A stretch of 64,000 nucleotides of DNA from Kiritimatiellia bacterium (GTDB lineage Bacteria > Verrucomicrobiota > Kiritimatiellia > RFP12 > UBA1067): assembly GCA_028686345.1 (NCBI GenBank), contig JAQUCE010000002.1, forward strand, positions 42,735 through 106,734, in the 5' to 3' direction. The position numbers and the translations under genes were made by a program. The notes beneath the pieces were generated by a model. The model did no database searches. It saw nothing but the letters and a program-made list of their open reading frames with translations, and was not told the origin of the DNA. Shown here piece after piece: positions 1 through 16,456 of the stretch; the first letter of the stretch is position 1, and every line of letters starts with the position of its first letter.

Positions 1-1201
1 CGCCAATCTGCCAGCCATCCATAACCACGAGCGAATTTCGGACAGCTTTGTCATCGCTCGCCCCCAGAATCCCCATGCACAGCGCTCCCACCGAGGTCAA
101 ACCATGCGTTCCGCTCTTTGAGATATAGCCAAAGCCTCCGTTATCACCCGCGTTGCTTTTAAAGCCTTTGACTGCCAGCTTGGCAGCCCTATCCAGCCCC
201 TCCACTTTGAGGCCCGCCAGTTTAGCCGCCTTGAGCGCCTGGGCGCACCAACCCATGTAAGAGGTGTCATCCCGGTATTTTCCTGTTGCCGAATCGATAC
301 CCGGCTCCATCTTATAGGTCCAGCCGCCGGTCGGATGCTGCCCTTTGATAATCGGAAGCAGCGCCAGCTCAGCCGACTCTTTGACATTGGGATTCCGCGT
401 CATGCCATAGGCTTCGCACATCGCATAGGTTGCGATCGGGTGCGAGTAGTAATGCTGATCCTGATTGGGATAAACTCCGGTTGTCCGATCCTGTCCTGCC
501 ATCAAAAACTCAATGGCGCGCTGAACCGTGTCGCCGAACTCCTCGGATTTGCCTGGCAGCTCGTTGTGCGCCAGGAATGTTAGAATCGCCAGCCCAGTCA
601 TGGCTGACTTATTTTTGTTCCAGCTTCCATCAGCAACCTGCGTCTTTTTCAGCCAGCGCAGCGCCTTGAGGACCGCGTCTTCAGTGTCTGTTTGGCGCCG
701 CGCGCCAACGCCGTCGCCGCGCCCGTCACCCAAACCTGAGGTCAAGTCCGTAAAGGTCGGGCCCACCTTAAAGCCCGCTAACACAACAATACTCTGGTTG
801 TCTAAAACCCTCTGGGGTGGCGGTTCAACATCCTCAAGCGCAGGGTTGAGATCAAGATTTCCAATAAAAGTCGCCTCTGGCTGGGCAACTTCTGAAGGAT
901 CACTTTTCTCGGATTTGGGTGGTTCAGTTAAGGTCTTCGGCTTCTCCTCTGGAATCCATCGCACGACCGTTGTGCTTTGTTCCTTTGGCAGCGAGCCACT
1001 CAGCATGAACAAGAGCAGTAGGGCCAGCAGCGGAAAGAAGAGCGCGCTCGCTGGCGCTGAGAGGCGCTGCCCTTCAATCAGTGCCTCTTTATACTCTTTG
1101 GAGTCTTTTGGCTGCCGGATGCCGGTGATCATCTTTTTCATGCGGCGCAAGAGCGAATCGCTCTGGTATCGCTCAGCAATCTCTTTAAGATTAGTATTCA
1201 T
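1..1201 (-). CDS. TonB-topology membrane-anchored protein with a C-terminal prenyltransferase/squalene-oxidase (QW-motif) alpha/alpha-toroid repeat domain. The C-terminal end lies beyond window coordinate 1. Paralog of 4613..6196.
   Basis: Manual minus-strand translation from ATG at 1201..1199 (AAGGTGG RBS upstream) gives MNTNLKEIAERYQSDSLLRRMKKMITG..., open to position 1. It has a single TM helix (ALFFPLLALLLLFMLSG), an acidic/Pro-rich linker, and QW motifs LRWLKKTQVADGSW and IIKGQHPTGGWTY. There is strong nucleotide similarity to the 5130-5400 region of the paralog. It is absent from the ORF track because no stop codon falls inside the window. Confidence 0.6.
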   Translation of the reverse strand, partial: MNTNLKEIAERYQSDSLLRRMKKMITGIRQPKDSKEYKEALIEGQRLSAPASALFFPLLALLLLFMLSGSLPKEQSTTVVRWIPEEKPKTLTEPPKSEKSDPSEVAQPEATFIGNLDLNPALEDVEPPPQRVLDNQSIVVLAGFKVGPTFTDLTSGLGDGRGDGVGARRQTDTEDAVLKALRWLKKTQVADGSWNKNKSAMTGLAILTFLAHNELPGKSEEFGDTVQRAIEFLMAGQDRTTGVYPNQDQHYYSHPIATYAMCEAYGMTRNPNVKESAELALLPIIKGQHPTGGWTYKMEPGIDSATGKYRDDTSYMGWCAQALKAAKLAGLKVEGLDRAAKLAVKGFKSNAGDNGGFGYISKSGTHGLTSVGALCMGILGASDDKAVRNSLVVMDGWQIG

Positions 1202-1221
1202 TTCAAACCACCTTTCATTGT

Positions 1222-1620
1222 TTATAAACTGAAAATCGACAGATTTGTCATACCATGTTTGCTGCAGATATCCAGTGCCTGGATCAGCAAAGCATGCGCA
1301 GAATCAGCGGTGCACTTGATCGTGACTGAAGCACTTTTGCTTAAAAGGGAGTACTGCTCCATCCTGCGATCCAGCTCCGCGTTACTCATCGCCCGTCCAT
1401 TAAAGGCAAACCCTTGTGGTGAGAGGGTGACCTCAATCAGATCAACTCTCGTAGCATTAGTCTCCGGAGAAGCGGGCCGAGCAGCTGTCAGTTTGGATAA
1501 AATATCATCCTGTCTGATAGCGACCAAAAAAAAGATTAATAGCTGAAACACAACATCAATCATAGGTGTCATGTCTAAACAAGGGGCCGACCCCTTGTCG
1601 CTTTTACTGTAACGTGTCAT
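1222..1620 (-). CDS. exbD: ExbD/TolR family biopolymer transport protein
   Basis: 132 aa with the N-terminal signature LDMTPMIDVVFQLLIFFLV (ExbD TM segment) and a periplasmic domain. It sits immediately upstream of the QW-repeat TonB-like gene. Confidence 0.85.
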   Translation of the reverse strand: MTRYSKSDKGSAPCLDMTPMIDVVFQLLIFFLVAIRQDDILSKLTAARPASPETNATRVDLIEVTLSPQGFAFNGRAMSNAELDRRMEQYSLLSKSASVTIKCTADSAHALLIQALDICSKHGMTNLSIFSL

Positions 1621-1740
1621 CTCGATCTCCTTTTAGTTATGCCAGTCAATCTACTATGGATCGAAATTAATATATACTCTCCCTGATTTGAGAACACTTT
1701 ATCAAAAAAAATGAGCTTTGTAAATAATTAAAAACTAAAG

Positions 1741-1917
1741 CTGCCAAAAGAGTTTGTGTGATGGCCGCGAGGTCGTCGCCTGGCTGCGAACAGTGCCGAC
1801 GAGGACATCAGCACTCTACGAACGACCTTGCAATGTAAACGTACACTTTGTCGCAAGCTTTGTCGTAAACTTTGTTGGAGTGGAATGAACGCGCCACGTT
1901 GTTTTTGAGGTGAAAAT
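1741..1917 (+). repeat. Dispersed intergenic repeat family 4 copy (related copies at 12700-12945, 14599-14880, 40449-40620 reverse-complemented, plus fragments at 36200-36290, 36660-36720, 47940-48000, 48500-48600)
   Basis: Shared blocks seen by eye, e.g. ctttgtcgcaagctttgtcgtaaactttgttggagtggaatgaacgcg...cgttgtttttgaggtgaaaa and caatcgtcggtcaacatcgtcgcacag. Confidence 0.6.
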
Positions 1918-2110
1918 GTTTTCTGCAGGCAAGATGCTTGCACTACTCCATTATCACTTTTACGGTAACGTCTCAATAACACGCTTTGGAGCAGCCTTCC
2001 TCCTCCGCCAAGGCTACGGCGCGACAAGAAAGGCTGGACAACAAACCTTATGCAGCAGCCGTTTGTTGTTCACGCTTCAGCGGGCTCTTTGTTCTCTGAC
2101 TGGTTATTGA
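1916..2110 (+). repeat. Structured ~170-nt dispersed repeat family 2 copy (candidate small RNA or MITE). Other copies are at 19640-19830 (reverse strand), 40726-40890 and 44690-44870.
   Basis: Conserved core: gcaagcaagatgcttgcactactccattatc...ggagcagccttccgtcttcgcgcttcg.agctacgccggacacggaaaggctggacaacaaaccttacg..gcagccgtttgttg. It contains nested inverted repeats: gcaagca/tgcttgc, cagccttccgt/acggaaaggctg, caacaaac/gtttgttg. Confidence 0.6.
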
Positions 2111-2235
2111 AAAACTACCTTCGCGAGTAAAGAGGTCGGACAAGCAACGTAGGTCTGATTTCGAATCGGACATCTCCGGTTGTAAACCGGAGCTACAGAA
2201 GATCGGCATACTGCAACAGGTATGTGAAAAGCGCG

Positions 2236-2360
2236 TCCTAGGGTGTAGGGTTGCTTCTCAGAAGCAATTAGCGGATGCCAGCTGGTTGTTCGCCAAAGGT
2301 GCGCCAAAGGATTTCATGATCTTTGTTTGGTTCATCCGTCTTCAGGCTTCACAAAAGCTA
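2236..2360 (+). repeat. Dispersed repeat family 3 copy (related copies at 12380-12560 and 36420-36600 reverse-complemented; fragments at 48460-48500 and 55830-55880)
   Basis: Shared string gtagggttgcttctcagaagcaattagcggatgcc.g.tggttgttcgccaaagg...atctttgtttgg.tcatccgtcttc. Confidence 0.55.
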
Positions 2361-2376
2361 CGCCCCTTATGCGTCC

Positions 2377-3051
2377 TCACACCCCAACCAGCAAGCCCTC
2401 TTGGATCTCCAGAATCCGGTCGCACAGTGCCGCGCTCTGCATGGAGTGGGTGACCATAATCAGCGCCGAGCCATTGACGCTGGAGAGTTCAAAGAGCAGA
2501 TCCATCACCTGCGAGCCGGTTTTGCTATCCAGATTGCCGGTCGGCTCATCGGCCAGCACCAGCGCCGGGTTGTTGATCAGTGCCCGCGCCAACGCGACGC
2601 GCTGTTGCTCACCGCCTGAGAGTTCCATTGGCATATGACTAACACGATCGCTCAGTCCAACACGCGCCAGCAGCTCCAGTGCGCGCGCGCGCATCTCGGA
2701 GCGAGTGATTTTGAGAACTCCGGTCATGGCGGGCAGCATTACATTCTCGGTCACATCCATTTCCGGCAGAAGGTGGTATGACTGAAAAACAAAACCGATC
2801 CGGGCGGCTCGCACCGCCGTTCTTTTACGCCGCGAGATATTATACAGCGGGATCCCGTCAATCAGCACCTCGCCGGAATCAGGGCGATCCAAGCCGCCCA
2901 GCACATGCAGCAGGGTGCTTTTGCCGGCACCGCTGCGTCCGACAACTGCGACGCGCTCGCCCTCTCTAACTGCTATCCCAGCACCCTTCAGCACACTGAC
3001 TTGCTGATGGGGTAGAGTATAGGTTTTAAATAAATTTTTCGCTTCCAGCAT
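2377..3051 (-). CDS. lolD: Lipoprotein-releasing system ATP-binding protein (LolD-like ABC ATPase)
   Basis: Walker A GRSGAGKST, ABC signature LSGGEQQRVALARAL, Walker B LVLADEPTGNLD. It is paired with an FtsX/MacB-type permease. The start was chosen at MLEAKNLFKTY rather than the upstream ORF-track Met. Confidence 0.75.
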   Translation of the reverse strand: MLEAKNLFKTYTLPHQQVSVLKGAGIAVREGERVAVVGRSGAGKSTLLHVLGGLDRPDSGEVLIDGIPLYNISRRKRTAVRAARIGFVFQSYHLLPEMDVTENVMLPAMTGVLKITRSEMRARALELLARVGLSDRVSHMPMELSGGEQQRVALARALINNPALVLADEPTGNLDSKTGSQVMDLLFELSSVNGSALIMVTHSMQSAALCDRILEIQEGLLVGV

Positions 3052-3109
3052 TGATTGCCTCTTTCCACGGCAGCGGCCCACGGCTCATCCGCCTGACATT
3101 CCCGCAACT

Positions 3110-4336
3110 CTACTCCTTACGCAGCGCAACAACAGGATCCATGCGCGCGGCTCTCCAGGCGGGCAGGAAACTGGCGACCGTGCAGAACATGATCACCGAC
3201 ATCGCCACATTCACCACCTCAGAGGGGATGATCCGCCAGGGGATGGCATTCAGCCCATAGATCGCCTTGGGAAAGACCTCCACTCCCAGCATACCCAGCC
3301 CATTCACCATGGACTGCAAGTTGTACAAAATCAGGAAGGCCGCGACGATCCCCAGCAAGGTTCCGATCAGACACTGGATCCAGCCGTAAATCACAAAGGC
3401 GCCCATGACCTGGCGCGAAGAGAAACCCAGTGCCTTGAGCAGGCCGATCTCATCGGTTTTCTGCACTGTCAGCACAATCAAGGTGTTGGTGACACAGAAA
3501 ATAGCAACGACCGTGATAAACATCAGCAGAATCACCATCATATTTTTCTCAACCGCCAAAGCATTGAAAATCTGGCGGTCGATCTCCTGCCAGGTCTGGA
3601 CTTGAAAATTGGGTGTGATATCCTCAACCCGTCCCACAACCTTGTTGAAAAACTCAAAATTGGCGGGTTGTTCGGTCTTGAGGTGGATGGAATAGACCCC
3701 TGAGCTCATACCCATCAGGTCGCGCGTCACGGCCAGCGAGGTGATAATGTAACCAGAGTCAAAGTCACGCTGCCCTGACTCGAAGATCCCTTTGACAATC
3801 AAACGGTCGGGAAAGTAGACCTCATCCGTGGAAACCAGATTCATAGGCGAGTAGACGAGCAGATCGTCGCCAACGTCCACCCCAAGTTCCTGTGCCAGAT
3901 CAGTGCCCAGTACCACGGCGTCACCGGTCACATCAAACTCACCCGCGCGCATGTGCTCCAGTTGCATAATATTTTTCGCGCGCACCGGATCCACTCCGAT
4001 CAGCACTGGGGCCACCACGCGCCGGTGATTTTCCACCAGCACCCTGGTCTCCAGTGACGGTGAGGCGGCTTTGACCCCCTCCACCAGCTCCAGCCGGCGG
4101 CAGAGGGCCTCCTCATCTTGGATGACCTTGCCCGCGAACGCACGGATGATGATATGGGGTTTGAAATCCAGGATCTTCTCCTGCCACATGTCGCCAAAAC
4201 CGGTCATCACTGCGCGCACAATAATGATAATGGCCACACCCAGCACAACACCGAGTACCGAGATCAGCGAGACTACCGATGTGACAGTGCGCTTGGGTTT
4301 CAAGTATTTCAGCGCCAAAAAAAGCGAAAAAAGCAT
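3110..4336 (-). CDS. LolC/LolE family lipoprotein-release ABC permease (FtsX-like with MacB periplasmic domain)
   Basis: 408 aa with N-terminal TM1, a large periplasmic domain, then 3 C-terminal TM helices typical of FtsX/LolCE. It is adjacent to the LolD-like ATPase. Confidence 0.75.
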   Translation of the reverse strand: MLFSLFLALKYLKPKRTVTSVVSLISVLGVVLGVAIIIIVRAVMTGFGDMWQEKILDFKPHIIIRAFAGKVIQDEEALCRRLELVEGVKAASPSLETRVLVENHRRVVAPVLIGVDPVRAKNIMQLEHMRAGEFDVTGDAVVLGTDLAQELGVDVGDDLLVYSPMNLVSTDEVYFPDRLIVKGIFESGQRDFDSGYIITSLAVTRDLMGMSSGVYSIHLKTEQPANFEFFNKVVGRVEDITPNFQVQTWQEIDRQIFNALAVEKNMMVILLMFITVVAIFCVTNTLIVLTVQKTDEIGLLKALGFSSRQVMGAFVIYGWIQCLIGTLLGIVAAFLILYNLQSMVNGLGMLGVEVFPKAIYGLNAIPWRIIPSEVVNVAMSVIMFCTVASFLPAWRAARMDPVVALRKE

Positions 4337-4420
4337 ATAAATTCTCAGTAGCGTCCCATAATCGCTTAAGCGGCTAGAAAAAACTATTAATTGTTCTTTC
4401 CCAAAAGTTGTTTATTGTGG

Positions 4421-4590
4421 CATCATTGCGGATATACTTCGCAATCATCCACCGCATAGCGGCGGATATACTTTACAATCATCCACCGCATAGCGGCGGA
4501 TATACTTTGCAATCATCCACCGCATAGCGGCGGATATACTTTGCAATCATCCACCGCATAGCGGCGGATATACTGTGCGTGGCTCTTAAA
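4421..4590. repeat. Tandem array of a 34-bp unit ATCCACCGCATAGCGGCGGATATACTTTGCAATC (4 full copies plus partials). Each unit holds the hairpin core CCGC-ATA-GCGG.
   Basis: The period-34 repeat is read directly from the sequence and is contiguous, with no unique spacers. The same 26-bp core recurs as inverted pairs at 14893-14961 and, diverged, at 51301-51375. Confidence 0.8.
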
Positions 4591-4612
4591 GGCCGAAGCA
4601 CATGCGTCCGTA

Positions 4613-6196
4613 TTACAGATTCCCGACATCAACCTCAATATCGCCGGTGTCGGTTGAGGTAGCCTCGATCTCCGCTTCAACCTGGACCGCTTCGCGGCTG
4701 GTGGTTGGCAGGTTGCGGTAGTATACCATCAATTGAAGCGCTACCAGACAGGTGTCCATCACCGGACGGTCGGTGTGCGCGTCAACGTTTTCCCACCACC
4801 CAATATCCTGATCTTTGCCGTTCATATCTTTGATCGCGTTTTTTGTAATCTTTTGGGCTTTGATATAAACCGGCTTCATCTCGGCGTTCCAATTGGCCCA
4901 GCGCTTACCGCCAGCATGAAATTTGGCTTGCGTTGCGTAGTAAAAATAGTACTGCGGGCTTCCGCCGACCTTATTCTCCTTATCAAACTCTCCGATACTC
5001 CACCCATCCATCAGATCCTGTGATTTGCGCACTGTGGTGTCGCTGCCAGCTCCCAGCAGCTGCAAACACAGCACACCCACGGCGGTCAATCCACCGCTGC
5101 CAGGCGAGGTATAACCGAACCCGCCATTCACAGCTGCATTGGCCTTAAAACCCTTAACCGAGTCCCGCATCGACTTGTCCAGCCCGTCAACATCGAGCCG
5201 CGCCAGTTTGCCTGCTTTAAGCGCCTGGGCACACCATCCCATATAAGAGGTGTCATCACGGTATTTTCCGCTCTCGGGGTCGACACCGGGGAAGAGTTTG
5301 TAGGTCCAGCCGCCAGTTGGGTGCTGTCCTTTGATAATCTGCTCCAGCGACTTTTCGGCGGCATACTTAACATTCGGATTCAGGGTCATGCCGTAGGCCT
5401 CGCACAATGCGTATGAGGCAATGGGGTGATCATAGTTGTTACCGCCGCCTGGCAGCAAACCGTTGTCGCGCTGTACCTTCATCAGATACTCCAGAGCCTT
5501 GCGCACAGTTTCGCCAAACTCCGGCGAGTCACCGGGTTTCTCTCCGTGAGCTAAGAAGGTCAGCACTCCCAGGCCGGTCATGGCGACCTTATTCTTGCTC
5601 CAGCTTCCATCTGCGTTCTGATTTTTCTTGAGCCAGCGCAGTGCCCGCATCACCGCCTCTTCGGTCTGTTTATCGCCGCCAAAACGGGCCAGTGAGGCGC
5701 CACGGGTGCCGGTATTACGTATATCGCCATAGATATTTTTAAGAATCACGGGACTTTTCACATTCATGACAGTGTCAAACTCCTGAGGCTGGGGGCTCAT
5801 GGGAGTGTCCTGCACATTCTCGACGCTCACATTCGGGGTGTCAACAGGCACGTCAATCTCGATCTGCTCCATATCTTCAGGCGGTTTCTCCAGGACTTCA
5901 ACGTCCTCCAGCTCCTGCATCTCCTCAGCCTCCATGATCTGCGTCTCAATAATCCGGTCATCGGTGACCGAAGCATTCGACAACACAACCAGCAACAGAA
6001 CCGAGAGCAGCGGCAACAGAACAGCTGAAATCGGGGCGGAGAGGCGCTGAATTTCAATCATCGCCACTTTATAAGCTCTGGAGTCACGCGGCGCTTTTAA
6101 GCCGGTGAAGAGCTTTTTCATCCGCTTGATGTAGGACTCATTGCCATACATCTCGGCGATCTCTGCGAGATTCGCATCTACCTCATTGAAATCCAT
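4613..6196 (-). CDS. TonB-topology membrane-anchored protein with a C-terminal prenyltransferase/squalene-oxidase (QW-motif) alpha/alpha-toroid repeat domain
   Basis: 527 aa with a ~50-aa cytoplasmic N-terminus, a single TM (ISAVLLPLLSVLLLVVLS), an acidic/Pro-rich linker (EEMQELEDVEVLEKPPEDMEQIEIDVPVDTPNV...PQPQEF), then QW motifs (LRWLKKNQNADGSW, IIKGQHPTGGWTY, MKVQRDNGLL). RBS AAGGGTGG lies before the ATG at 6196. Confidence 0.6.
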   Translation of the reverse strand: MDFNEVDANLAEIAEMYGNESYIKRMKKLFTGLKAPRDSRAYKVAMIEIQRLSAPISAVLLPLLSVLLLVVLSNASVTDDRIIETQIMEAEEMQELEDVEVLEKPPEDMEQIEIDVPVDTPNVSVENVQDTPMSPQPQEFDTVMNVKSPVILKNIYGDIRNTGTRGASLARFGGDKQTEEAVMRALRWLKKNQNADGSWSKNKVAMTGLGVLTFLAHGEKPGDSPEFGETVRKALEYLMKVQRDNGLLPGGGNNYDHPIASYALCEAYGMTLNPNVKYAAEKSLEQIIKGQHPTGGWTYKLFPGVDPESGKYRDDTSYMGWCAQALKAGKLARLDVDGLDKSMRDSVKGFKANAAVNGGFGYTSPGSGGLTAVGVLCLQLLGAGSDTTVRKSQDLMDGWSIGEFDKENKVGGSPQYYFYYATQAKFHAGGKRWANWNAEMKPVYIKAQKITKNAIKDMNGKDQDIGWWENVDAHTDRPVMDTCLVALQLMVYYRNLPTTSREAVQVEAEIEATSTDTGDIEVDVGNL

Positions 6197-6216
6197 AGTG
6201 TTCCACCCTTCTTTTG

Positions 6217-6621
6217 TCAGATACTAAAGATCGACAGGTTGGTCATGCCATTCTTGTTGCAGATATCCAACGACTGCACCAGAAAGGCATGCGGTGAGTC
6301 GGCGGTGCATTTAATGACAATCATCGCCGTCTTGCTCAGGTCGGCGTAACGTTTGATCCTGCGGTCAAGCTCCACTAAAGAGACAGGCCGTCCATTCAAA
6401 ATAAACCCCTGGGGCGCGACCTGGATTGTGATCAATTCGGGCTGATTCTCTTTTCGCGCTCTTGGATCCGCAGCTGGACGAGCTGCGGAAAGTTTTGACA
6501 GGATGTCCTCCTGTTTAATTGTCACAATAAAGAAAATCAACAACTGAAAGACAACATCAATCATTGGTGTCATGTCCAGTTTCGGGGTCTCTCCTTTATT
6601 TTGTTTTCTTACATAAGCCAT
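6217..6621 (-). CDS. exbD: ExbD/TolR family biopolymer transport protein
   Basis: 134 aa, LDMTPMIDVVFQLLIFFIV signature. Confidence 0.85.
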   Translation of the reverse strand: MAYVRKQNKGETPKLDMTPMIDVVFQLLIFFIVTIKQEDILSKLSAARPAADPRARKENQPELITIQVAPQGFILNGRPVSLVELDRRIKRYADLSKTAMIVIKCTADSPHAFLVQSLDICNKNGMTNLSIFSI

Positions 6622-6641
6622 CTAAAGCCTCCTGGCATTTA

Positions 6642-7139
6642 TCATTTTTTCCCTGCTTTATGCTCTTGAATAGCCACGAACGACAGCTTCCAAATTCCCA
6701 CGCCCGTGCAGATATCCATAACCTCGCGCACCTTTTCGTGCGCAGTTTTGCGGTCTGCGCGAATCAACACGGGAAACTCATTTCCGTTGCGGTTGACGCG
6801 GGCTTTTAGAATCTGTTGCAGTTGATATTTCGACAGCGTCGCATTATGGATTGAGATGCGCCCACCCCGCGCCAGCTCAATTTCGAGCGTGGTTGGCGGC
6901 ATATTATCCTGTGTCAGCGTCACGCCATGCTTGCCATCCTCCAGCATGATCTCCTCATTGCGGTCAGATGTCATTTTAAGCGTGACCACAAAGAAAATAA
7001 TCAACTGGAACACAACGTCAATCATCGGTGTCATATCCACATCGCACGTCTCGGTTGAGCTATGTCTTCTTTTGTGCATGGTTCGGTTCCTTTGTCTGCT
7101 ATAGGCAGTTAAATTCGCACTTCGCAGTCGGGCAGCCAC
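6642..7139 (-). CDS. exbD: ExbD/TolR family biopolymer transport protein (second ExbD of the operon). The true start may be the internal Met near 7079.
   Basis: VDMTPMIDVVFQLIIFFVVTLK signature. An AAGGAACC RBS precedes the internal MHKRR start. Confidence 0.8.
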   Translation of the reverse strand: MAARLRSANLTAYSRQRNRTMHKRRHSSTETCDVDMTPMIDVVFQLIIFFVVTLKMTSDRNEEIMLEDGKHGVTLTQDNMPPTTLEIELARGGRISIHNATLSKYQLQQILKARVNRNGNEFPVLIRADRKTAHEKVREVMDICTGVGIWKLSFVAIQEHKAGKK

Positions 7140-7237
7140 AAATGACAGCCCGACTGCCGCGCTTTAAAACATGGCAATCCTATGATCAATAGCCAACTGA
7201 AGCCCGGTTAAAAGGGCGGCAGCTGCCACGGACGGAT

Positions 7238-8029
7238 TTAGTCGCTAACAATCTCGACGTTGCGCAAATCCTTAATCAATTCCATGGTCATCGCCTGCAT
7301 GCGCAAGACCAAACGGTTGGCATTGTTACGGATGGCGTAATAAAAAGTGATTGAGGGAATCGCAATCGCCAGACCGGCGGCGGTAGTCCAGAGCGCCTGC
7401 GAGATGTTCATTGCCAGGGCGCCGACATCGGGGGCGCCTGTGGCCAGGGTGGAGAAACTCATGATCATGCCTTGCACGGTACCCAGCAGCCCCAACATGG
7501 GCGAGAGGTTGGAGCAGACAGAGATCCAGGTCAGACGCTGCATCAGTCGCTCAGTCTCCAGGTCAGCGGCTGCGATGATCGATTCCTGAATAATGTCGAA
7601 GCCCTCTTCCACATGCGAAAAGCCGGCGGTTAGAATATTGGCCAGTGGTCCGGGCTCGGATTCACAGGCTTGCAGGGCTTTCATCACATCACCCTCGGAC
7701 ATGCCCTCTTTCACGCGGTTGATCAGCGTCTCAGGCATGACCTTCTGCGGGCGAATCAAGACTGAACAGTCAACAATAAAGTACACTGCCGCGCCGCCGC
7801 AACCAAACAGAGCTGCCCACAACACCATTCCCAGCCATCCTGAACCCACAATCACAGCCCAGAACCCGGCGGATTTAGGCGCCTGTCTGGCCCCTGCCGC
7901 GCCTCCTTCGGCGACCAATACGCCCTCAGCGGCAGCGGCAGCTGGCGCATCTACATCTTGCGCCATGACCGGCGCACTCCCAAGCATCAACCCTGTGAAC
8001 ACTACTGCTGACAAAATCAGTCTTTTCAT
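7238..8029 (-). CDS. exbB: MotA/TolQ/ExbB proton-channel family protein with an N-terminal signal peptide and a long periplasmic N-terminus
   Basis: C-terminal LSPMLGLLGTVQGMIMSF...ALWTTAAGLAIAIPSITFYYAIRN matches the ExbB/TolQ TM2-TM3 signature. It lies directly upstream of two exbD genes. Confidence 0.85.
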   Translation of the reverse strand: MKRLILSAVVFTGLMLGSAPVMAQDVDAPAAAAAEGVLVAEGGAAGARQAPKSAGFWAVIVGSGWLGMVLWAALFGCGGAAVYFIVDCSVLIRPQKVMPETLINRVKEGMSEGDVMKALQACESEPGPLANILTAGFSHVEEGFDIIQESIIAAADLETERLMQRLTWISVCSNLSPMLGLLGTVQGMIMSFSTLATGAPDVGALAMNISQALWTTAAGLAIAIPSITFYYAIRNNANRLVLRMQAMTMELIKDLRNVEIVSD

Positions 8030-8124
8030 TGTTACCTCTTGTGTTTTTATTACTCGTGTTTTTTAAAGTTAGCTGTTGACTAACAAAACTTTTGTTTATG
8101 CCCCGTCCGGGGCACACCTGCGGT

Positions 8125-8934
8125 TTATTTGAGAGCCCACTCAGAAGAGCTGTACTCCCCTTTCAACTTTGTGCGCATCTGATCAGCGCGCGATGAATGG
8201 CCCAGTTTCTCAAAGCACTTGGCCGCCTTGTACAACGCTTCCGGCTGCGCGGCCTTGATTCCGCTGTAAAGCGTAATCACGCGCAAATAGCCATCACGCA
8301 AAGCCCTGCTGGCGCTCTCATTGGTGTCGCCATCTTTCCTGATCATATCACCACGCATAATCAGTGCAAAAGCGGAAGCGGAACGATCCGCGTTTTTCAC
8401 CGCTTGTGTAATCAGATCGTCCAATCTGGCTGTCCGGTCACCCATTAGCAGCGCTGCCCAGTAGGCGGGTGCCATATCGCCTTGATAGGCAGCCGTTGGA
8501 TCAGCGGCGATCACCCGCTCGCAGACCTTGATTGCATTAGAGGGGTCATTGTCTTTGACATAAGCCTCGGCCAGCAGACGTGTTGCCGGCCTGTCCCAGA
8601 TCAGCATGAAGTAGTCGTTGATAATCTTGTTCAGCACAGGAATGGCGGCAGCGGCGCCCTCGCCGCGCTTAAGGCTCGCTTCAATTGCGGTTAACTCCGC
8701 CGGCTTGGGGATGAGCAGCCGCGCAATCATATCCCGTTCCAGCGTCAGCTCAATATTGCCCGGGCCTGACGCACGAATGCCGTAGGCTTTGTCGCGGCTC
8801 TTCCAGGTAATCTCGCCATCCAGTCTTTTCCCGTCAGTCGTGACAATCGTGCCCTGTATGGCGGCCATCCCGGCGCCTGCTGTTAGCAGCAGGGCTGTCA
8901 AAAGAACTCTTTCAATACTTTTTCTCATACTCAT
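8125..8934 (-). CDS. Hypothetical secreted protein (signal peptide; helical, TPR-like) in the Ton-like operon
   Basis: N-terminal LLTALLLTAGAGMAA signal-like segment. No recognised catalytic motifs. It is operonic with exbB. Confidence 0.45.
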   Translation of the reverse strand: MSMRKSIERVLLTALLLTAGAGMAAIQGTIVTTDGKRLDGEITWKSRDKAYGIRASGPGNIELTLERDMIARLLIPKPAELTAIEASLKRGEGAAAAIPVLNKIINDYFMLIWDRPATRLLAEAYVKDNDPSNAIKVCERVIAADPTAAYQGDMAPAYWAALLMGDRTARLDDLITQAVKNADRSASAFALIMRGDMIRKDGDTNESASRALRDGYLRVITLYSGIKAAQPEALYKAAKCFEKLGHSSRADQMRTKLKGEYSSSEWALK

Positions 8935-8973
8935 TCCTTATTTATTCCTCAAAACTCGTTGCCATCCACTTGC

Positions 8974-11900
8974 CTACTGTCCGATTTTCGCCTGGTTGAG
9001 CCAGTTCTGCATATCAGTTGCATAGCGTCCCTGCGGGAAGAGTTTGAGATATGTTTCGCAATCCTCCACGGCCTGGTCATAGGCTTTATGCTCCAGCAAC
9101 AGGGGGGTGAAGGCAAAGTAGGCCTTCTCCAGATAGGGTGCCAGTATAGCATCACCGGGATCAAACCGGTCGATAATGGTCATAAACGCCACAATCGCGG
9201 TGCCGCGCGTCGCAGCTGCCTGGTCATCCAGCCCCAGCTTTTTCTCAGCCTCCATCTTGCGCACCAGCATGTTGCCGGTGGCCAGATCGATCTCGGCGAT
9301 CTCGGCTTTGGTCTTGCGGTAGCCCCGCACCAGCTTAAGTGAATCAACCGCCTGGTTGAAGAGGTCTTTACGCAGATCGTTGTCCGCCTCACTCCTGCCC
9401 TCTTCACTGGCCGCTTCGGCCAGCAGCATGTGGGCGTCCACCACTTGCACTAACTTCGAAAGCTCGGGATCAGCCACATACGCTGCCAACAGTTGGCGCG
9501 CCTCACGGTATTGCTTCTGGCCAATCAGCGCTTTGGCTTTGCCCAGTTTGGCCTCAGCAATCAAGGCAAACTCCTTAGACTCGTCCAGCACCTTGTTATA
9601 GGCCTCCAAAGCCAGCGCATCCTCCCGTGCCTGCAGCAGGGCGTTACCGGCCGCGTTGTACTGCCCTGGCGTGTATTTGCCTCCTCCGATGAACATCTCG
9701 CGGTATTTGGCCACGCCCTCACCGCGCAGCCCCATTTCAATCAAACTCGCTGCCAGCATTGGAACCGAGTTTTTGGCTTCGTCGGAGTCGGGGTAATTTT
9801 TGCTGAGAGCTTCAAAGGCCTTCTGGGTCTCTTCCTTGTATTGGTTCTGCTTGGCCTCATCCGTGGCGCTGCCCGCAAGGATCGTGTACAACGTGCCGAG
9901 CTGTAACTGAGCTTTAGGCGCGTATTTGCTCTTGGGGAAAATTGCGAGAAACTCCTTAAACGCGGCAGCCGCTTGGTTGCGGAACTCTGCCAGTTTGTCC
10001 TTGGGGTACTGCAGCTGTGAGAGAGCAACGCCTTTGGTGAATGTGGCCAGCTCCCGCATCTGCTGGTTGCGATCGCTCTCCTCGGCGTTCTTCTGATAGG
10101 CCTCCGGATTGGCCAGCATTTTTGCAACTGAATCAAAGCTGCTCGCAGCTTTCTCCAGTAAGCGGGCACCCTGTTGCAGGACCACTTCATCGGTCTCGTT
10201 GGTGGCTGATTTCAAAAGATATGCGCCATATGAGCGCTCAGCATCAGCTAGGCGGAACTTCGCAACCGTCAGGTTATGGCCCGGACGCTCGCCCTTCTGT
10301 AGCTCGTCAATCATAAACTCCAGCGTGCTCAACTCATTGGAGTAGTTCCCTTCAGCCTTGTAAATTTGCGTGATCCGGTTCAAGGCGTCATGATAATAGG
10401 TGGATGACTTGTACTCGGTGATCACTCTGTCGTAGTAGGCTTTAGCGCCAACGTAGTTCTCGGCTTTGAACTCACGCTCCGCAAAGCTCATTACCAACTG
10501 ACTCGCAGCATAGTGCTTGGGATAATCGCGGAAGAACAAGGCGTAAACCTCACGCTTTTTGTCATCGCGGTTATTGTTGCCGTAATAATCCCCGATCTTA
10601 CGCACCTGGTCACCAGCGGCCTTCATCAAATCCTCCTTGGTGGCAAAACGCTCGGAGAGATGCCCCACCACGGTATCAGCCATCAGCTCATCGTCGGCAC
10701 CGCCCTCAATATAGCAGATGGCAAGATTGCCGAGCGCGTTGACCGACTCCATGGACTCCGGAAACTGGTTCAATACGATCAGATACTTCTCTGCCGCCTC
10801 TTTAAACTGATTCTGGCTGAACAAAAGATTGGCGCCGGCAAACTGCATGGAGCGCACCCGCTCCATCTGCTGCGGGGTCACCTGGATGGGGATATCGACA
10901 TTGTAGCGATCTTTGATAATACTGCGGATCTCATTGGAGTGCTCGCCGGCTTCCGCCGCCCACTGGCTCTCAGGAAAGCGGATAAACACATTGATAAAGT
11001 GGTTAAAAGCACCGTTGTTAGCCCGCCGCTTGGTCCTGGCATCGCGCTCTCCCAGAAAGTAGGCCTTGATCAGCTCCTCATCCGGGGCGGGTTTCTGCAT
11101 CTCCGCCTTGGCCTCATTCAGCAGCAGTAACGCCAGCAGATAGCGGCACTCAGGCATTGGGCTCATCCGCAGCCAGCCCCGTGTGCCGTCAGGATCTTCT
11201 TCCAACAGCGAGTCGTGGATGATCTTCAGCTGCGGCATGTAATTTTCCACCAGTGCTTGCGCGCCTTTGATGTCACCACGCAACATCGCAACATGGGCCT
11301 TCATGACAATCGCTTTACCGAACCAGACATCCTGCTTCCAAAGCAGCTTGTCCGCCAGCGCCTCCGCCTCTTTCAGCATCGCTTCCTTGGCGCCCTTGTC
11401 CTTGCTTTCCGCTGAGAGCTTCAACATCAGCTCCGCCATGTCAGCATTCACATTCCGAGCTCGCCCCTCCTCCAGCTTCACGTTGGACAACAGTTTGTAA
11501 GCCTTCAGCGCCTCCGCGTCCTTGCCCAAATAAAGCAGCATCTGCGCATACTTATAAGCCGAGTCCCGATAAAAGGAGTGCATCGCTTCAGAGGGCTTGG
11601 CCACTTTTTTGAAAAACTCCTGGTAGAGCGCATCCGCCTCGGCATAGCGCTGAAAAGCGTAATACGCGTCCGCCATTGCCAGCGTCAACGCCCAGAACTC
11701 AGGGCTGTTCTTGTCAGCCATTGCGTCAATCTGCGCCTTGACCTCATCAAACTTGCCCTGCCATAGCAATCCCTGAAATTCACGCACCTTGAGCTGCGGT
11801 CCAGCTTCGGGATATGCTCTTTTAACCTCAGCAATCACCTGCTCCGCAATGTCCGGCATACGCAGTTGCTGTAGTAACTCTATATATTTGAGTTCCTCTT

Positions 11901-12012
11901 TAAGCTCTGCATCGGTCTCTGACTCCTGTGCCTTTAGCCTAGGAGTAAGGGCTAAGGCAAAGATGGCCGTGACCGATAGCAACAGAAATCTATGAAATCT
12001 TATGTAACTCAT
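8974..12012 (-). CDS. Large secreted tetratricopeptide (TPR) repeat protein, first gene of the Ton-like operon
   Basis: 1012 aa with signal peptide MSYIRFHRFLLLSVTAIFALALTPRLKAQE. Many AxxAxxxYxxA-type TPR-like helical repeats occur throughout (YYAFQRYAEADALYQEF, etc.). Confidence 0.7.
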   Translation of the reverse strand: MSYIRFHRFLLLSVTAIFALALTPRLKAQESETDAELKEELKYIELLQQLRMPDIAEQVIAEVKRAYPEAGPQLKVREFQGLLWQGKFDEVKAQIDAMADKNSPEFWALTLAMADAYYAFQRYAEADALYQEFFKKVAKPSEAMHSFYRDSAYKYAQMLLYLGKDAEALKAYKLLSNVKLEEGRARNVNADMAELMLKLSAESKDKGAKEAMLKEAEALADKLLWKQDVWFGKAIVMKAHVAMLRGDIKGAQALVENYMPQLKIIHDSLLEEDPDGTRGWLRMSPMPECRYLLALLLLNEAKAEMQKPAPDEELIKAYFLGERDARTKRRANNGAFNHFINVFIRFPESQWAAEAGEHSNEIRSIIKDRYNVDIPIQVTPQQMERVRSMQFAGANLLFSQNQFKEAAEKYLIVLNQFPESMESVNALGNLAICYIEGGADDELMADTVVGHLSERFATKEDLMKAAGDQVRKIGDYYGNNNRDDKKREVYALFFRDYPKHYAASQLVMSFAEREFKAENYVGAKAYYDRVITEYKSSTYYHDALNRITQIYKAEGNYSNELSTLEFMIDELQKGERPGHNLTVAKFRLADAERSYGAYLLKSATNETDEVVLQQGARLLEKAASSFDSVAKMLANPEAYQKNAEESDRNQQMRELATFTKGVALSQLQYPKDKLAEFRNQAAAAFKEFLAIFPKSKYAPKAQLQLGTLYTILAGSATDEAKQNQYKEETQKAFEALSKNYPDSDEAKNSVPMLAASLIEMGLRGEGVAKYREMFIGGGKYTPGQYNAAGNALLQAREDALALEAYNKVLDESKEFALIAEAKLGKAKALIGQKQYREARQLLAAYVADPELSKLVQVVDAHMLLAEAASEEGRSEADNDLRKDLFNQAVDSLKLVRGYRKTKAEIAEIDLATGNMLVRKMEAEKKLGLDDQAAATRGTAIVAFMTIIDRFDPGDAILAPYLEKAYFAFTPLLLEHKAYDQAVEDCETYLKLFPQGRYATDMQNWLNQAKIGQ

Positions 12013-12239
12013 ACTGTGCTTTATACTCTAACCGTGGCTTTTGGTCAATTTCAAATCATCACTTTTTTCTAAAAAGTGCATACAAGTGTAGTCAGCCATG
12101 GTATTTTACACCTTAATATAAGCTTACGTGGCATAGCTGCTGCCCCAAGCGCGCCGAAATAGCTGAGGTCAGCGATCTGAGATAGAGGCCGCTGCAAAAA
12201 AAGTGGGCTAACTTAAAGGCCAAAAGCATCGGGTGGCGC

Positions 12240-12950
12240 TCTGCGAGCGATATGAAAGATGGGCCGCCGCTGGTAGAGCGGCATTTTGCAGCAGACCCGT
12301 GAAAGGCTCGCCCCGGGGTGTAGTAGCCGCTCTATGAGCGGCATTTTGCAGCAGACCCGTGAAAGGCGCGCCCCGGGGTGTAGGGTTGCTTCTCAGAAGC
12401 AATTAGCGGATGCCGGGTGGTTGTTCGCCAAAGGATTTCACTATCTTTGTTTGGCTCATCCGTCTTCGTCCCGCAACCCGGCTTCGCCCTCAAGCGCTGC
12501 TGCGTCGTGGGATGGCGGAACTACGACGGACAAGTTCCGCCAACCCTACACGTTTCCACTGTGATGAAGCTTGCATGTCGTACGACAGGCGCGAGTACGC
12601 GAATGCGCGAATGCGCGAGTTAAAGAGATGGAGACTTTTATGCGACGCAACGCAGCTCCGATTTTCAATCGGACATGTCCGGCTGGAAACCGGAGCTACT
12701 GCGGTCGGACATCTCCGGTTTGCGATAGCGGCGGCGACGATGCTGGTTGACAAGCCCGCGCATGACCCCAATCGTCGGTCAACATCGTCGCACAGTATCG
12801 TCGGCCGCAGCGGCAGGGCACGGCCTCCACCGCGCCGCCTGAACGACCTTGCAGCGCAAGCGCAAACTTTGTCGTTAACTTTGTCGGAGTGGAGTGAGGT
12901 TTTTCAAAAACGTGCGTGAAAAACAACGCAGCGCACTCTCCGTCCCCTCT
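12240..12950. repeat. Mosaic repeat block: a 63-bp direct duplication (12268-12392), then a family 3 copy (12380-12560), then a family 4 copy (12700-12945)
   Basis: Direct comparison with the copies at 2236-2360, 36420-36600, 1741-1917 and 14599-14880. ORF-track ORFs inside this block (e.g. 12410..12919) are judged spurious. Confidence 0.6.
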
Positions 12951-13229
12951 GTGCCTCAATGGCTAAACAAAATTCGCGGCAAAGGGCCAAAACTCTCTCA
13001 TATCCACGCTGTTCGTCCACTTTTGCTGTGCCAACCGCTGCGAAAATTACGCAGAATCAGGGTCGTTTAACTCAATTTATCGAGTTTTAGCCGCCGAAAC
13101 TCTGGAATTTCGAACAAAATGCAAAAAAAAACCTTATTTATGAATTTCTGGTTGCAGTAAACCCCGATTTTAGGTAAATTTGATGATGTTGTTAAATCTA
13201 TTTACAGGAATAAATTCAGAGGTATTGAC

Positions 13230-14366
13230 ATGGGTAAAGCATTAAGAATACTTGTAATCATCATTTTGTTACTGAGTGTTGTCTCGTTGGTGTTCGCGCA
13301 TCTGCTTTTTGAAAAGCGAGTGCTGCTAACTGAAAGGAATCGAATTTTCGAAAACGCGGTCGTTAATCTGGCCAAAACAATCGAAAAAGAAGATGCCGCC
13401 GACTCGACTCCACCCAGCGTAGAAAAAGATATCGCCACGGTTACCGACCGTGAACTGGTAAACCCCGAAAAAGAGCCGATGCTCCAAAACTATCCCATCC
13501 AGCTGGAGCAACAGAACTTGCCCACCTTGGATTTGGATAACACCAAGATGCGTCTGCAGCTGCGCAGTTACTATGTCATCGACCCTGTAACCGGCAAATA
13601 TAAGATCGACGAGCTCAGCCAGCTTCCTGCGACAAAAGGTCCAGGCTCAATGGTCGAAGTGCTTGACAATGTCTTTGAGCGCGCCAAGGTCCAGCAGGCC
13701 AAGCTTAACAGCACCCGCGCCGAGCTGGCTAAAATGCGCGATAAGATGACCGCCGCGGTTGAAGATATCAACGCACTCAAAATCGCTGGCCGCGCCGATA
13801 AAAAAGAGATCACCGAAAAGGCCGGGCAGATTGCTTCGCTACAGGGTGAAGTCGCTGATCTGGAAACCAGAGTTGCCCGCCTGACCAATGAGAAGCGTGA
13901 ACTCGCCGCTGAATTGGCTGACAGCCGCAATGAGGTCGAAACCCTTAACGGCGAACTCGTGGCTGTCAAGGAAGACTTGGTCAAAGCGGAAGAGAAAAAT
14001 GCCGATTGGGAAAAACGCTGGAAAGGCTTGAAAAATAATCCGCTGGGCGACCCTGACGCAATTATCGTGACTGCGCTCAGCGCTGGCGACAAAGGCAAAA
14101 TCATTGAAGCCAATGATGAGCTGAAGTTCGCTATCCTTGAGTTTTCCAACGAAGCCATCACTGAGATGCTCGGCCCTGAGCGTGCCAACCAGCTCCCTCA
14201 ACTGGAGATGAATGTGCGCCGCCCTGGACACCAGAGCGCCTCTGGCGAGTTTATCACCCGCATCAAGCTGCGTCAGGTGGTGCGTGGCAAAAATCTGGTT
14301 GTAGCGGATATCCTCAGCGACTGGCAGCAGGCAACCGTGGAAAAAGGCGATGTCGTATTTTTCTAA
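13230..14366 (+). CDS. Hypothetical N-terminally membrane-anchored coiled-coil protein
   Basis: 378 aa with TM ILVIIILLLSVVSLVFAHLLF, then a long heptad-rich region (AELAKMRDKMTAAVEDINALKIAG...LETRVARLTNEKRELAAELADSRNEVETLNGEL). An AT-rich promoter-like region lies at 13100-13229. Confidence 0.55.
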   Translation: MGKALRILVIIILLLSVVSLVFAHLLFEKRVLLTERNRIFENAVVNLAKTIEKEDAADSTPPSVEKDIATVTDRELVNPEKEPMLQNYPIQLEQQNLPTLDLDNTKMRLQLRSYYVIDPVTGKYKIDELSQLPATKGPGSMVEVLDNVFERAKVQQAKLNSTRAELAKMRDKMTAAVEDINALKIAGRADKKEITEKAGQIASLQGEVADLETRVARLTNEKRELAAELADSRNEVETLNGELVAVKEDLVKAEEKNADWEKRWKGLKNNPLGDPDAIIVTALSAGDKGKIIEANDELKFAILEFSNEAITEMLGPERANQLPQLEMNVRRPGHQSASGEFITRIKLRQVVRGKNLVVADILSDWQQATVEKGDVVFF

Positions 14367-14598: not shown

Positions 14599-14880
14599 GC
14601 CGCACCTTCGGTTTACGATAACGGCGACAATGCTGACCGACGAGCCCCCGCATGATCCCAATCGTCGGTCAACATCGTCGCACAGCATCGTCGTTCGATG
14701 TCGCTGGCAGAGCGGCTGCTACACATGCGCTGCACTGCGGAGTGCAAGAGAAAATCAGTGCCTGTCCCCAGAAAATCCCTAATCTCAATCTTAATCATAA
14801 GCGTAAATTTTGTCGCAAGCTTTGTCGTTAACTTTGTCGGAGTGGAATGAACGCGCTACGTTGTTTTTGAGGTGAAAAAT
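14599..14880 (+). repeat. Dispersed repeat family 4 copy
   Basis: Shares cggtttacgata.cggcgac.atgctg...caatcgtcggtcaacatcgtcgcacag...tttgtcgcaagctttgtcgttaactttgtcggagtggaatgaacgcg with the other copies. Confidence 0.6.
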
Positions 14881-14892
14881 CTTAGCGGTGAA

Positions 14893-14961
14893 AAATGGGC
14901 ATCCACCGCATAGCGGCGGATATACTGAAAGCAACACAGTATATCCGCCGCTATGCGGTGG
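14893..14961. repeat. ~66-bp near-perfect palindrome built from two inverted copies of the 26-bp core ATCCACCGCATAGCGGCGGATATACT (the same core as the 4421-4590 tandem array), ~60 bp upstream of the ROK kinase gene
   Basis: Read directly: catccaccgcatagcggcggatatactg-aaagcaacac-agtatatccgccgctatgcggtggatg. Confidence 0.8.
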
Positions 14962-15019
14962 ATGATTGTGAAACAAGCCGCAATAAGGCCCGATAGACAA
15001 CTTTCAGGAAAGAATATTT

Positions 15020-16311: not shown

Positions 16312-16456
16312 GCCAAGCGCCACCACCGGGTTTACCCCGGTGGAGCGATGATCAGACCGAACGCACGATCGCCAAGGCCACCACCCCGCCACGCCACCAC
16401 CGCTCGCCCCGCCAAGCGCCACCACCGGGTTTACCCCGGTGGAGCGATGATCAGAG
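16312..16456. terminator. Two direct copies of a 45-bp unit (16312-16356 and 16411-16456), each holding the perfect hairpin CCACCGGG-TTTAC-CCCGGTGG. They lie between the convergent ROK and FKP-like genes and are putative bidirectional terminators.
   Basis: The palindromes are read directly. The second copy abuts/overlaps the FKP-like stop codon (16451-16453). Confidence 0.5.

Follow-up and report, generated by a model that had tools for sequence, protein, structure and literature searches.

A conserved Kiritimatiellia operon combines ExbB/ExbD-family subunits with a membrane-anchored toroid protein, a candidate transducer

Gene clusters of the type exbB-exbD1-exbD2-tonB are found in Bacteroidetes and Xanthomonas, and there are bacteria in which several TonB paralogues use the same motor. 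In PVC bacteria, non-TonB transducers are encoded behind TPR-tolQ-tolR-tolR, including a vWA 'force transducer' class (PMC12204202), and this class is the closest published analogue of the locus described here, which lies in a 64-kb stretch of DNA (64,000 nucleotides; hereafter, the window) from a Kiritimatiellia (PVC) MAG. The two share their phylogenetic setting and the succession of a TPR gene, one TolQ/ExbB gene, two different TolR/ExbD genes and a gene for a bitopic protein with a TMH, a disordered linker and a globular periplasmic domain other than TonB_C. They differ in that the last protein, called QW here, ends in an (alpha/alpha)6 toroid and not in a vWA domain, that the SHLS/His motif reported for the TMH of the vWA type is missing from QW, and that two TPR genes are present here; a squalene, terpene, prenyl or toroid type is not mentioned in that study. 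The toroid type of QW, in which a toroid stands in place of the TonB domain, appears to be undescribed in the searchable literature. Our favored hypothesis, to which we assign a probability of roughly 55%, is that the locus encodes a Ton/Tol-type, PMF-driven machine with a toroid transducer and a Tol-like role in the envelope, that a second cassette shares its ExbB, and that lolDE belongs to the locus by neighbourhood.

All 12 elements of the locus are on the minus strand, and ORF listing, translation and Pfam/NCBIfam scans bore out the gene order and coordinates given by an earlier, sequence-only reading of the window. The operon's first gene (8974-12012) encodes TPR1012, a secreted, 1012-aa, all-TPR protein whose sequence starts with a signal-peptide-like segment. 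It is followed by the gene for TPR269 (8125-8934; 269 aa), previously described as a small secreted protein; secreted it is, but it is also a TPR protein itself, with a TPR/YbgF-like module at its C-terminus. The ExbB/TolQ-family proton-channel subunit (7238-8029; PF01618, 92.7 bits), the type a and type b ExbD/TolR proteins, ExbD_a (6642-7139; PF02472, 78.8 bits) and ExbD_b (6217-6621; PF02472, 75.4 bits), and QW1 (4613-6196; 527 aa; SQHop_cyclase_C, 29.8 bits) complete a core of six genes. Beyond QW1 are a tandem array (4428-4578), a LolE/LolC-like ABC permease (3110-4336), a LolD-like ABC ATPase (2377-3081), a repeat-filled spacer of 756 nt (1621-2376), ExbD_c (1222-1620; PF02472, 62.7 bits) and QW2 (1-1201). 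The second QW gene is thus present as proposed earlier, but it is cut by the window edge, so that only its first 400 codons fall inside; the full-length protein (P0121) is a QW1 paralogue of 527 aa.

ExbB and all three ExbDs score above the Pfam gathering thresholds for PF01618 and PF02472, and the TM motif MTPMIDVVFQL, with its conserved Asp, is found in all three ExbDs. The best NCBIfam match of ExbB is tolQ (70 bits, far below the cut-off) and that of ExbD_a is tolR (also below the cut-off). ExbD_a and ExbD_b are 29% identical, and in the ExbD tree (neighbour-joining, like the QW tree, and without support values, as is the latter) the split between types a and b is deep and kept across loci, with the ExbD_c clade nested in type b. 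Under our hypothesis, ExbB would form the channel, as a pentamer by analogy, and this channel would house a heteromeric pair of type a and type b ExbD.

QW1 is a bitopic protein: its cytoplasmic N-terminus, which is conserved, leads into a single TMH, and a disordered acidic linker of ~100 aa then connects to an (alpha/alpha)6 toroid, followed by a C-terminal tail that is conserved too. In the AF2 model, the TMH lies within a helix spanning residues 40-75, residues 76-173 are disordered (pLDDT <50), and the toroid is modelled with confidence, its fold being confirmed by further checks; the sequence gives a positively charged N-terminus and an acidic linker. The cytoplasmic motif (S.EYK.A.IE.QRLSAP), the TMH, in whose region the conserved motif is QRLSAP..A...P, and the C-terminal end (DI.VD.GNL) are common to all QW paralogues; the segment after the TMH reads DRIIETQ..EAEE in the operon clade only and is different in QW2. 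The TMH of every QW paralogue lacks a His and the SHLS motif of TonB (S-x3-H-x6-L-x3-S), whose His is essential, and Pfam scans gave no match to TonB_C (PF03544) in QW1 or QW2, nor to a vWA domain in QW, while the positive control for TonB_C, a genuine member of that family in locus L017, scored 74 bits. The sequence-only reading had called QW TonB-like and the first half of the locus a Ton-like operon. This description fits the topology of QW (N-in bitopic, with a disordered periplasmic linker and encoded next to exbBD) and the Ton/Tol-like architecture of the operon (ExbB, two heterologous ExbDs, a protein of TonB topology, TPR), as well as the several partner paralogues per genome, but it does not extend to membership of the TonB family: in addition to TonB_C and SHLS/His, the polyproline region and a nearby TBDT gene of Ton systems are missing.

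QW would be the periplasm-spanning partner of the motor under our hypothesis, encoded directly after ExbD_b (20 nt separate the two genes). QW would dock on ExbB through its TMH and the conserved cytoplasmic segment, in a way that would differ from TonB/TolA and from the published vWA type because the TMH has neither His nor SHLS; the type-b ExbD would engage the short conserved stretch that follows the TMH, the ~100-residue linker would cross the periplasm, and the toroid and C-terminal tail would contact a periplasmic or OM target, where the two secreted, CpoB/BamD-like TPR proteins may plausibly join the toroid. Alternatively, the invariant residues of the toroid, i.e., RDDTS and many aromatic positions, could mean catalysis or ligand binding, not force transduction; GGW and GGFGY are invariant as well. 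Class II terpene cyclases carry DxDD in a central cavity, have two domains (beta-gamma) and are membrane-monotopic cytoplasmic enzymes, and by eye the GGW...RDDTS..W segment of QW may resemble the active-site segment of SHC. QW might be a membrane-anchored periplasmic enzyme, or a lipid/isoprenoid binder, that derives from these cyclases and is co-expressed with the motor without transducing force. We consider this distinctly improbable. The fold is that of the beta domain of squalene-hopene cyclase, but identity is just 13-17%, and the AF2 model has a single toroid after the TMH and linker, predicted to be periplasmic and TMH-tethered, and not the beta-gamma architecture. Profile alignment of QW to SHC matches generic QW repeats only; it does not support an alignment to a catalytic DxDD motif, and RDDTS aligns to another repeat, at SHC ~540-560, outside the expected DxDD region. 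Further, the strict adjacency and co-duplication of ExbD_b and QW, the long disordered linker, and the fact that the cytoplasmic segment and TMH are so highly conserved among paralogues would all be left unexplained by an enzyme or binder.

The core order ExbB-ExbD_a-ExbD_b-QW was found in 45 of the 79 loci fetched (44 assemblies). Both TPR genes are present, with TPR1012 upstream of ExbB, in 39 of these 45 loci, the remaining six being cut by contig ends, and TPR269 is kept between TPR1012 and ExbB in every complete core locus. The core also occurs in the distant loci L089, L090 and L091, with QW proteins 39-45% identical. The operon is characteristic of Kiritimatiellia and conserved class-wide. 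In relatives, its neighbours are asd, fabH, bamA, skp, lpxD, degP, lpxI, lpxB and a Mur ligase, and this envelope-biogenesis, housekeeping neighbourhood is shared with Tol-Pal systems that include CpoB/YbgF, as are the tolQ/tolR best matches of ExbB and ExbD_a and the YbgF/CpoB-like TPR modules. We view Tol-like envelope maintenance, rather than nutrient import, as the most likely role. Against a Tol-like machine, no TolB or Pal gene is found in the operon (Pfam/NCBIfam scans of the operon genes matched neither of these nor TolA, PF06519), and the NCBIfam Tol and CpoB matches are all below their cut-offs. For instance, TPR1012, which also has TPR_14, TPR_19 and YfiO matches, scores 75 bits in three stretches against TIGR02795 (YbgF/CpoB; cut-off, 90 bits) and 55 bits, again below the cut-off, against the BamD-type TIGR03302; TPR269 reaches 24 bits against TIGR02795, below the cut-off. 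A precedent for TPR accessory subunits is the Vibrio TonB2 system with TtpB/TtpC/TtpD, in which the operon-encoded TPR protein TtpD2 is essential (PMC6957404); the likeness is one of TPR content, and that system differs in having a true TonB2 and in serving siderophore uptake. Another possible part of the motor system is CC378 (13230-14366, plus strand), a TMH and coiled-coil protein with coiled-coil matches only in the domain scan. It is a conserved neighbour: in 24 loci, L090 and the distant L089 (30% identity) among them, a homologue is the next gene upstream of TPR1012, in divergent orientation.

TonB binds the TonB box of TonB-dependent transporters (TBDTs). If QW replaced TonB instead, it would energise OM transporters for nutrients, e.g., glycans, and its paralogues would serve different transporters. 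The TonB-like topology would fit such a role, and so would the occurrence of at least two QW loci in 21 of 58 assemblies (with tandem triplets in L074 and L079), the toroid fold, which is common to many glycan-binding enzymes, a clade of solo QW genes that adjoins an ECF sigma/anti-sigma pair and recalls TonB-dependent surface signalling, and the absence of SusC-type uptake genes from K. glycovorans (PMC5148204). However, the conserved neighbourhoods that were inspected contain no TBDT-like gene, and the core gene order is fixed among housekeeping genes, unlike that of accessory uptake loci. Moreover, canonical TonB_C proteins exist in Kiritimatiellia, in Pontiella (PMC10880615) as well as in L017/L018, where a canonical ExbB and TonB_C protein coexist with the QW operon. 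This means that the QW system is not just the Ton system of the cell, and we regard import as an unlikely role for it.

The two ABC genes next to QW1 have LolCDE components as their best family matches, with TIGR02212 for the LolE-like permease (277 bits vs. an equivalog cut-off of 362 bits; MacB_PCD + FtsX architecture) and TIGR02211 for the LolD-like ATPase (251 vs. 308 bits). In a phylum this distant, scores under the cut-off might not be surprising; a further difference from LolCDE is that there is one permease gene here. The synteny comparison showed that their adjacency to the motor is not confined to one strain: among the 39 informative core loci, 23 have a lolE-lolD pair behind QW, with lolE next to QW in the same orientation and often after a gap of 5-100 nt, and lolE follows QW again in the distant L091 (19-nt gap; LolE 52% and QW 39% identical). 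These data, and the two ExbD+QW cassettes that bracket lolDE in the window and in L087/L088, would be in line with a functional link of the kind at which the sequence-only reading had hinted, in which LolDE-dependent lipoprotein release or OM lipoprotein trafficking would be energised or regulated by the motor with its QW/ExbD modules, lolDE being a true component. We find this coupling doubtful, since lolE is missing from 16 core loci in which 1.5 kb of flank or more is available and from L089 and L090, stands without an adjoining lolD in L091, and solo QW genes and ExbD+QW pairs (L086, L080) also occur away from lolDE. In addition, the N-terminus of no operon protein carries a lipobox, and LolCDE, which releases lipoproteins together with LolA/LolB-type partners, is ATP-driven and is not known to depend on a PMF motor. 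The linkage of lolE-lolD to QW holds at the level of a clade and lies in a neighbourhood of envelope-biogenesis genes. Under our favored hypothesis, lolDE would be at the locus because the operon sits in this neighbourhood, and in one clade lolE-lolD would have joined, or would directly abut, the operon's transcription unit.

The second pair, ExbD_c and QW2, has the same 20-nt spacing as ExbD_b and QW1. At the DNA level, the two modules can still be aligned with ~75% similarity at a constant offset of ~4990 nt, as might be expected if the second module had arisen by a recent segmental duplication, the alternative offered by the sequence-only reading, and were specific to this strain and devoid of a role of its own. 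We rejected this reading, which has hardly any probability left, based on the divergence of the paralogues (protein identity is just 60% between ExbD_c and ExbD_b and 52% between QW2 and QW1) and their separate orthologue clades, which date the duplication as old. Specifically, QW2 orthologues were found in other MAGs at 80, 69, 62, 59 and 56% identity, and wherever the flank could be inspected, an ExbD_c-type gene precedes them; QW2 forms its own clade in the QW tree, branching outside the whole operon-linked QW1 clade, and ExbD_c groups with ExbDs from L085, L086 and L087 whose genes stand in front of QW2 orthologues. The nesting of the ExbD_c clade in type b, together with the separate QW2 clade, points to co-duplication of the pair. 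The same full 11-gene arrangement is found in one other MAG (L087/L088); in the closer relatives L004, L005 and L024, no second pair lies between lolD and asd. Judging from these comparisons, ExbD_c+QW2 goes back to an ancient duplication of ExbD_b and QW as one cassette, and it has no ExbB or ExbD_a of its own. ExbB is present in one copy in the window, and a search of the whole window found no second one; by analogy with shared TonB motors, the cassette would most likely plug into the same ExbB as an alternative stator-transducer complex.

Finally, the tandem array in the QW1-lolE spacer consists of 4.4 hairpin units of 34 bp (96% matches), with a folding MFE z of -6.3. Its unit has four matches vs. 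none expected, and related units recur at 14900-15020 and 51350-51375 and, in L004, in the corresponding spacer; the array is a dispersed repeat, not an operon-specific signal. The spacer between lolD and ExbD_c is likewise filled with pieces of dispersed intergenic repeats, which recur at 12266-12897, 14603-14878, 19662-19820, 36122-36718, 40450-40885 and 44707-44885.

Every gene and repeat block listed by the sequence-only reading was borne out on the minus strand by ORF listing, translation, and Pfam and NCBIfam scans. In this Kiritimatiellia MAG (PVC superphylum), a core operon encodes a large TPR protein (TPR1012, 8974-12012), a 269-aa protein (TPR269, 8125-8934), ExbB (7238-8029), two ExbDs (ExbD_a, 6642-7139, and ExbD_b, 6217-6621) and QW1 (4613-6196, 527 aa), a bitopic protein of TonB topology carrying a SQHop_cyclase_C-like toroid. 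Downstream follow a tandem array of 4.4 copies of a 34-bp unit (4428-4578), LolE-like (3110-4336) and LolD-like (2377-3081) genes, a repeat-filled spacer (1621-2376), a third ExbD (ExbD_c, 1222-1620) and QW2 (1-1201), whose gene continues past the window edge and whose full-length product (P0121) has 527 aa. The same 20-nt gap separates ExbD_b from QW1 and ExbD_c from QW2. TPR269, described earlier simply as a small secreted protein, is secreted and is also itself TPR/YbgF-like. An Rfam scan of the window matched only three tRNAs, all far from the locus.

We mapped these genes by tblastn in 79 loci from 58 assemblies, obtained from a scan in which each GTDB species was represented by one genome; all the loci are labelled Kiritimatiellia or carry older PVC labels. 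The order ExbB-ExbD_a-ExbD_b-QW recurred in 45 loci (44 assemblies), 39 of them with the two TPR genes upstream and the remaining six truncated at contig ends, and the six-gene core was also found in three distant loci (L089, L090 and L091), where the QW protein is 39-45% identical to QW1. The adjacency of lolDE, from which a functional link to lipoprotein trafficking had been proposed, held in only part of this sample: 23 core loci have lolE no more than 3.5 kb downstream of QW and 16 with at least 1.5 kb of flank have none, and its presence follows the clade closest to the window. Gaps of 5-100 nt between QW and lolE are frequent in relatives. The gene recurs in distant L091, where a LolE 52% identical to that of the window begins 19 nt past QW; the genes after it are queF, a Mur ligase gene, lpxI and lpxB, with no lolD there. 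Neighboring genes in relatives mostly have envelope functions (asd, fabH, bamA, skp, lpxD, degP). A promoter and terminator scan gave counts inside the shuffle range and detected nothing resembling a terminator between QW1 and lolE, and was thus uninformative on co-transcription. Judged by gene order, the Lol link is a real linkage at the clade level with a hypothetical mechanism, that is, a source of hypotheses and not a result. The more interesting content of the locus is the QW-type partner and its cassette-wise duplication with ExbD.

A recent segmental duplication, the other origin that the sequence-only reading had offered for ExbD_c and QW2, is refuted by the divergence of the paralogues and by their trees. 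ExbD_c is 60% identical to ExbD_b and QW2 is 52% identical to QW1, and the phylogeny proposed there to date the event placed ExbD_c and QW2 each in its own clade. Specifically, in a neighbor-joining tree the QW2 clade falls outside the entire operon-linked QW1 clade, beside a clade of "solo" QW paralogues, and the ExbD tree shows a deep a/b split with the ExbD_c clade nested within type b, next to type-b orthologues from the clade to which the window belongs (both trees are without support values). QW2 also has separate orthologues in other samples (80, 69, 62, 59 and 56% identity), each preceded by an ExbD wherever flank exists (L085, L086, L087/L088). Taken together, the identities, the separate orthologues and the tree positions point to a duplication of ExbD_b and QW long ago, as one cassette. 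The whole arrangement of the window, including LolD-ExbD-QW-asd, was found in L087/L088, whereas in closer relatives (L004, L005, L024) asd directly follows lolD without a second cassette, a distribution that argues for an old but patchily retained second cassette. ExbD+QW pairs were also found apart from lolDE (L086, L080).

Other copy-number changes were seen as well. In the closest relative, whose QW1 is 87% identical, a 577-aa QW lies between lolD and asd (L001 13671-15404; L003 11882-13615); it falls inside the QW1 clade, has no preceding ExbD, and shows 73% identity overall and 82% across the N-terminal 402 aa; this is a distinct, more recent duplication at that site, or else a gene conversion there. 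In L023 (11698-12093, with cinA after it) and L030, the gene after QW1 is a third ExbD, of the ExbD_c-like lineage, and there is no second QW. Two or three QW genes stand in tandem after the core operon in L074 (6279-11665), L079 (6826-11857), L073, L089 (8001-11598) and L055, those of L074 and L079 being triplets. At least two QW loci occur in 21 of the 58 assemblies, and the family comprises 854 clusters at 50% identity (E<=1e-30).

The AF2 model of QW shows N-terminal helices with a TMH inside residues 40-75, then a stretch of low confidence that is presumably disordered (76-173), a confident toroid (174-495, pLDDT ~90) and a low-confidence C-terminal tail. A cytoplasmic juxtamembrane motif (S.EYK.A.IE.QRLSAP) and the TMH, which contains no His and no SHLS, are strongly conserved in all QW paralogue clades, as is the C-terminal end (DI.VD.GNL). 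A post-TMH segment (DRIIETQ..EAEE) is confined to QWs of the operon clade; QW2 differs there. By the defining features of each family, QW is outside the TonB, vWA-transducer and terpene-cyclase families. The TMH motif and a Pfam scan, which found neither a TonB_C nor a vWA domain, rule out membership in TonB; terpene-cyclase activity was rejected since a PDB-sequence profile search returned only generic QW repeats, and in that search the invariant RDDTS of QW did not align to the catalytic DxDD.

Two QW1 segments are predicted to be disordered yet are near-invariant in the QW1 clade, and are candidate partner-binding motifs: residues 134-175 before the toroid (window ~5672-5797; SPQPQ.FD.VM.VKSPV.LKN.YG..RNTGTRG..LARFGGD) and 496-527 at the C-terminus (~4616-4711; LPTTS.EAV.VE.EI.ATSTDT.DI.VD.GNL). 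After the solo QWs, which have no adjacent ExbD (L029, L031, L033, L042-L049, L051-L054, L058, L059), come same-strand genes for an ECF sigma factor and for a zf-HC2 anti-sigma factor, which suggests a tie to envelope-stress signalling; secY precedes the solo QW in L045, the one case checked.

The textbook case of inner-membrane energy reaching the outer membrane is that of the Ton and Tol motors, and the locus bears on how phyla without a recognisable TolA or TonB energise theirs. The single ExbB, the two deeply diverged ExbDs and a bitopic partner always 20 nt past the type-b ExbD, together with ExbD/partner co-duplication, an N-terminal docking region common to all paralogues and a clade-specific post-TMH segment, are consistent with a 5:2-type ExbB/ExbD motor that would carry a heteromeric ExbD pair, with QW in a TonB/TolA-like role and ExbD_b-type subunits conferring partner specificity. 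ExbD_c and QW2, with no ExbB or ExbD_a of their own, would then assemble with that same ExbB into an alternative complex. We consider a Tol-like role in the envelope likelier than nutrient import because the core order is fixed and set among housekeeping envelope genes, the TPR modules are CpoB/BamD-like, the best matches of ExbB and ExbD_a are tolQ and tolR (all under cut-off), and no TBDT gene is linked to the operon. A further reason is that a canonical ExbB and a TonB_C protein coexist with this system in L017/L018, and TonB_C and TBDT domains have been reported for Pontiella (PMC10880615). Directly after lolD, on the opposite strand, these two loci (L017 13808-15813, L018 16435-18430, both minus) encode a second ExbB paralogue and a canonical TonB with a SxxxH-type TMH, a Pro-rich linker and TonB_C at 74 bits; therefore, at least some Kiritimatiellia have a true Ton system beside the QW system.

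Kiritimatiellia belong to a phylum of polysaccharide degraders that has received little study, and for which the locus offers a concrete, testable case of a Tol-like envelope system, as well as of modular stator-adaptor-transducer evolution. A 2025 study, which started from Tichowtungia aerotolerans (Kiritimatiellota), a bacterium without discernible TonB or TolA, proposed vWA proteins behind TPR-tolQ-tolR-tolR as new transducers in PVC bacteria (PMC12204202). The QW system shares backbone and topology with that class but differs in its C-terminal fold and in missing the SHLS His; the vWA paper makes no mention of any toroid, terpene or prenyl type (PMC12204202), and targeted literature searches returned nothing relevant on a toroid-type ExbB/ExbD partner or a Kiritimatiellaeota ExbD. 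A TPR protein, TtpD2, is essential for a Ton-type motor in Vibrio (PMC6957404). Kiritimatiellia seem to combine the same operon backbone with another kind of partner, the toroid type, which shows extreme conservation, is present in multiple copies and co-duplicates with one specific ExbD type. As known here from comparison and structural prediction, the QW system would be a variation on a known motor type. Our boldest reading, to which we give a probability of about 30%, is that QW adds a third structural class, besides TonB/TolA and the proposed vWA class, to the motor-coupled periplasmic force transducers, forming a Kiritimatiellota Tol-equivalent envelope machine with the two TPR proteins and a divergent coiled-coil protein, and that ExbD_b-type subunits are dedicated specificity adaptors, which would account for the joint, cassette-wise duplication of ExbD and QW. 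Links of the system to ECF envelope signalling and lipoprotein/outer-membrane biogenesis are also possible.

The coiled-coil protein (CC378, 13230-14366, plus strand, 378 aa), absent from the earlier gene list, has a TMH at its N-terminus as well as a long coiled coil and is encoded divergently from TPR1012; its homologues are placed in this way in 24 loci, among them the distant L089 (30% identity) and L090, and it may be a member of the motor system. Genes further along (16451-36037) include those for a 1031-aa fucokinase/fucose-1-P guanylyltransferase-like protein, a 1584-aa PATR-repeat protein, a beta-helix protein and a 2964-aa GH94/glucoamylase-domain protein resembling cyclic beta-1,2-glucan synthase.

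The long spacers of the window's operon (276 and 756 nt) are made up of repeat units dispersed through the window, and it is these units that lengthen them. Repeat-mosaic intergenic regions occur at 1621-2376, 12013-13229, 14603-15020, 19662-19820, 36122-36718, 40450-40885, 44707-44885 and 47966-48586, with short units of 76-95% identity whose order is shuffled from site to site; they look like a REP/MITE-like family. Neither the 34-bp array nor the repeat block was accepted as an operon-specific regulatory element, since the same units occur window-wide and in relatives. The 34-bp unit holds a hairpin (AUCCGCCGC...GCGGUGGAU), and the array folds far better than shuffled sequence (z = -6.3); related units lie at 14900-15020 and 51350-51375, and a further copy is found in the QW-lolE spacer of the relative L004 (11679-11704).
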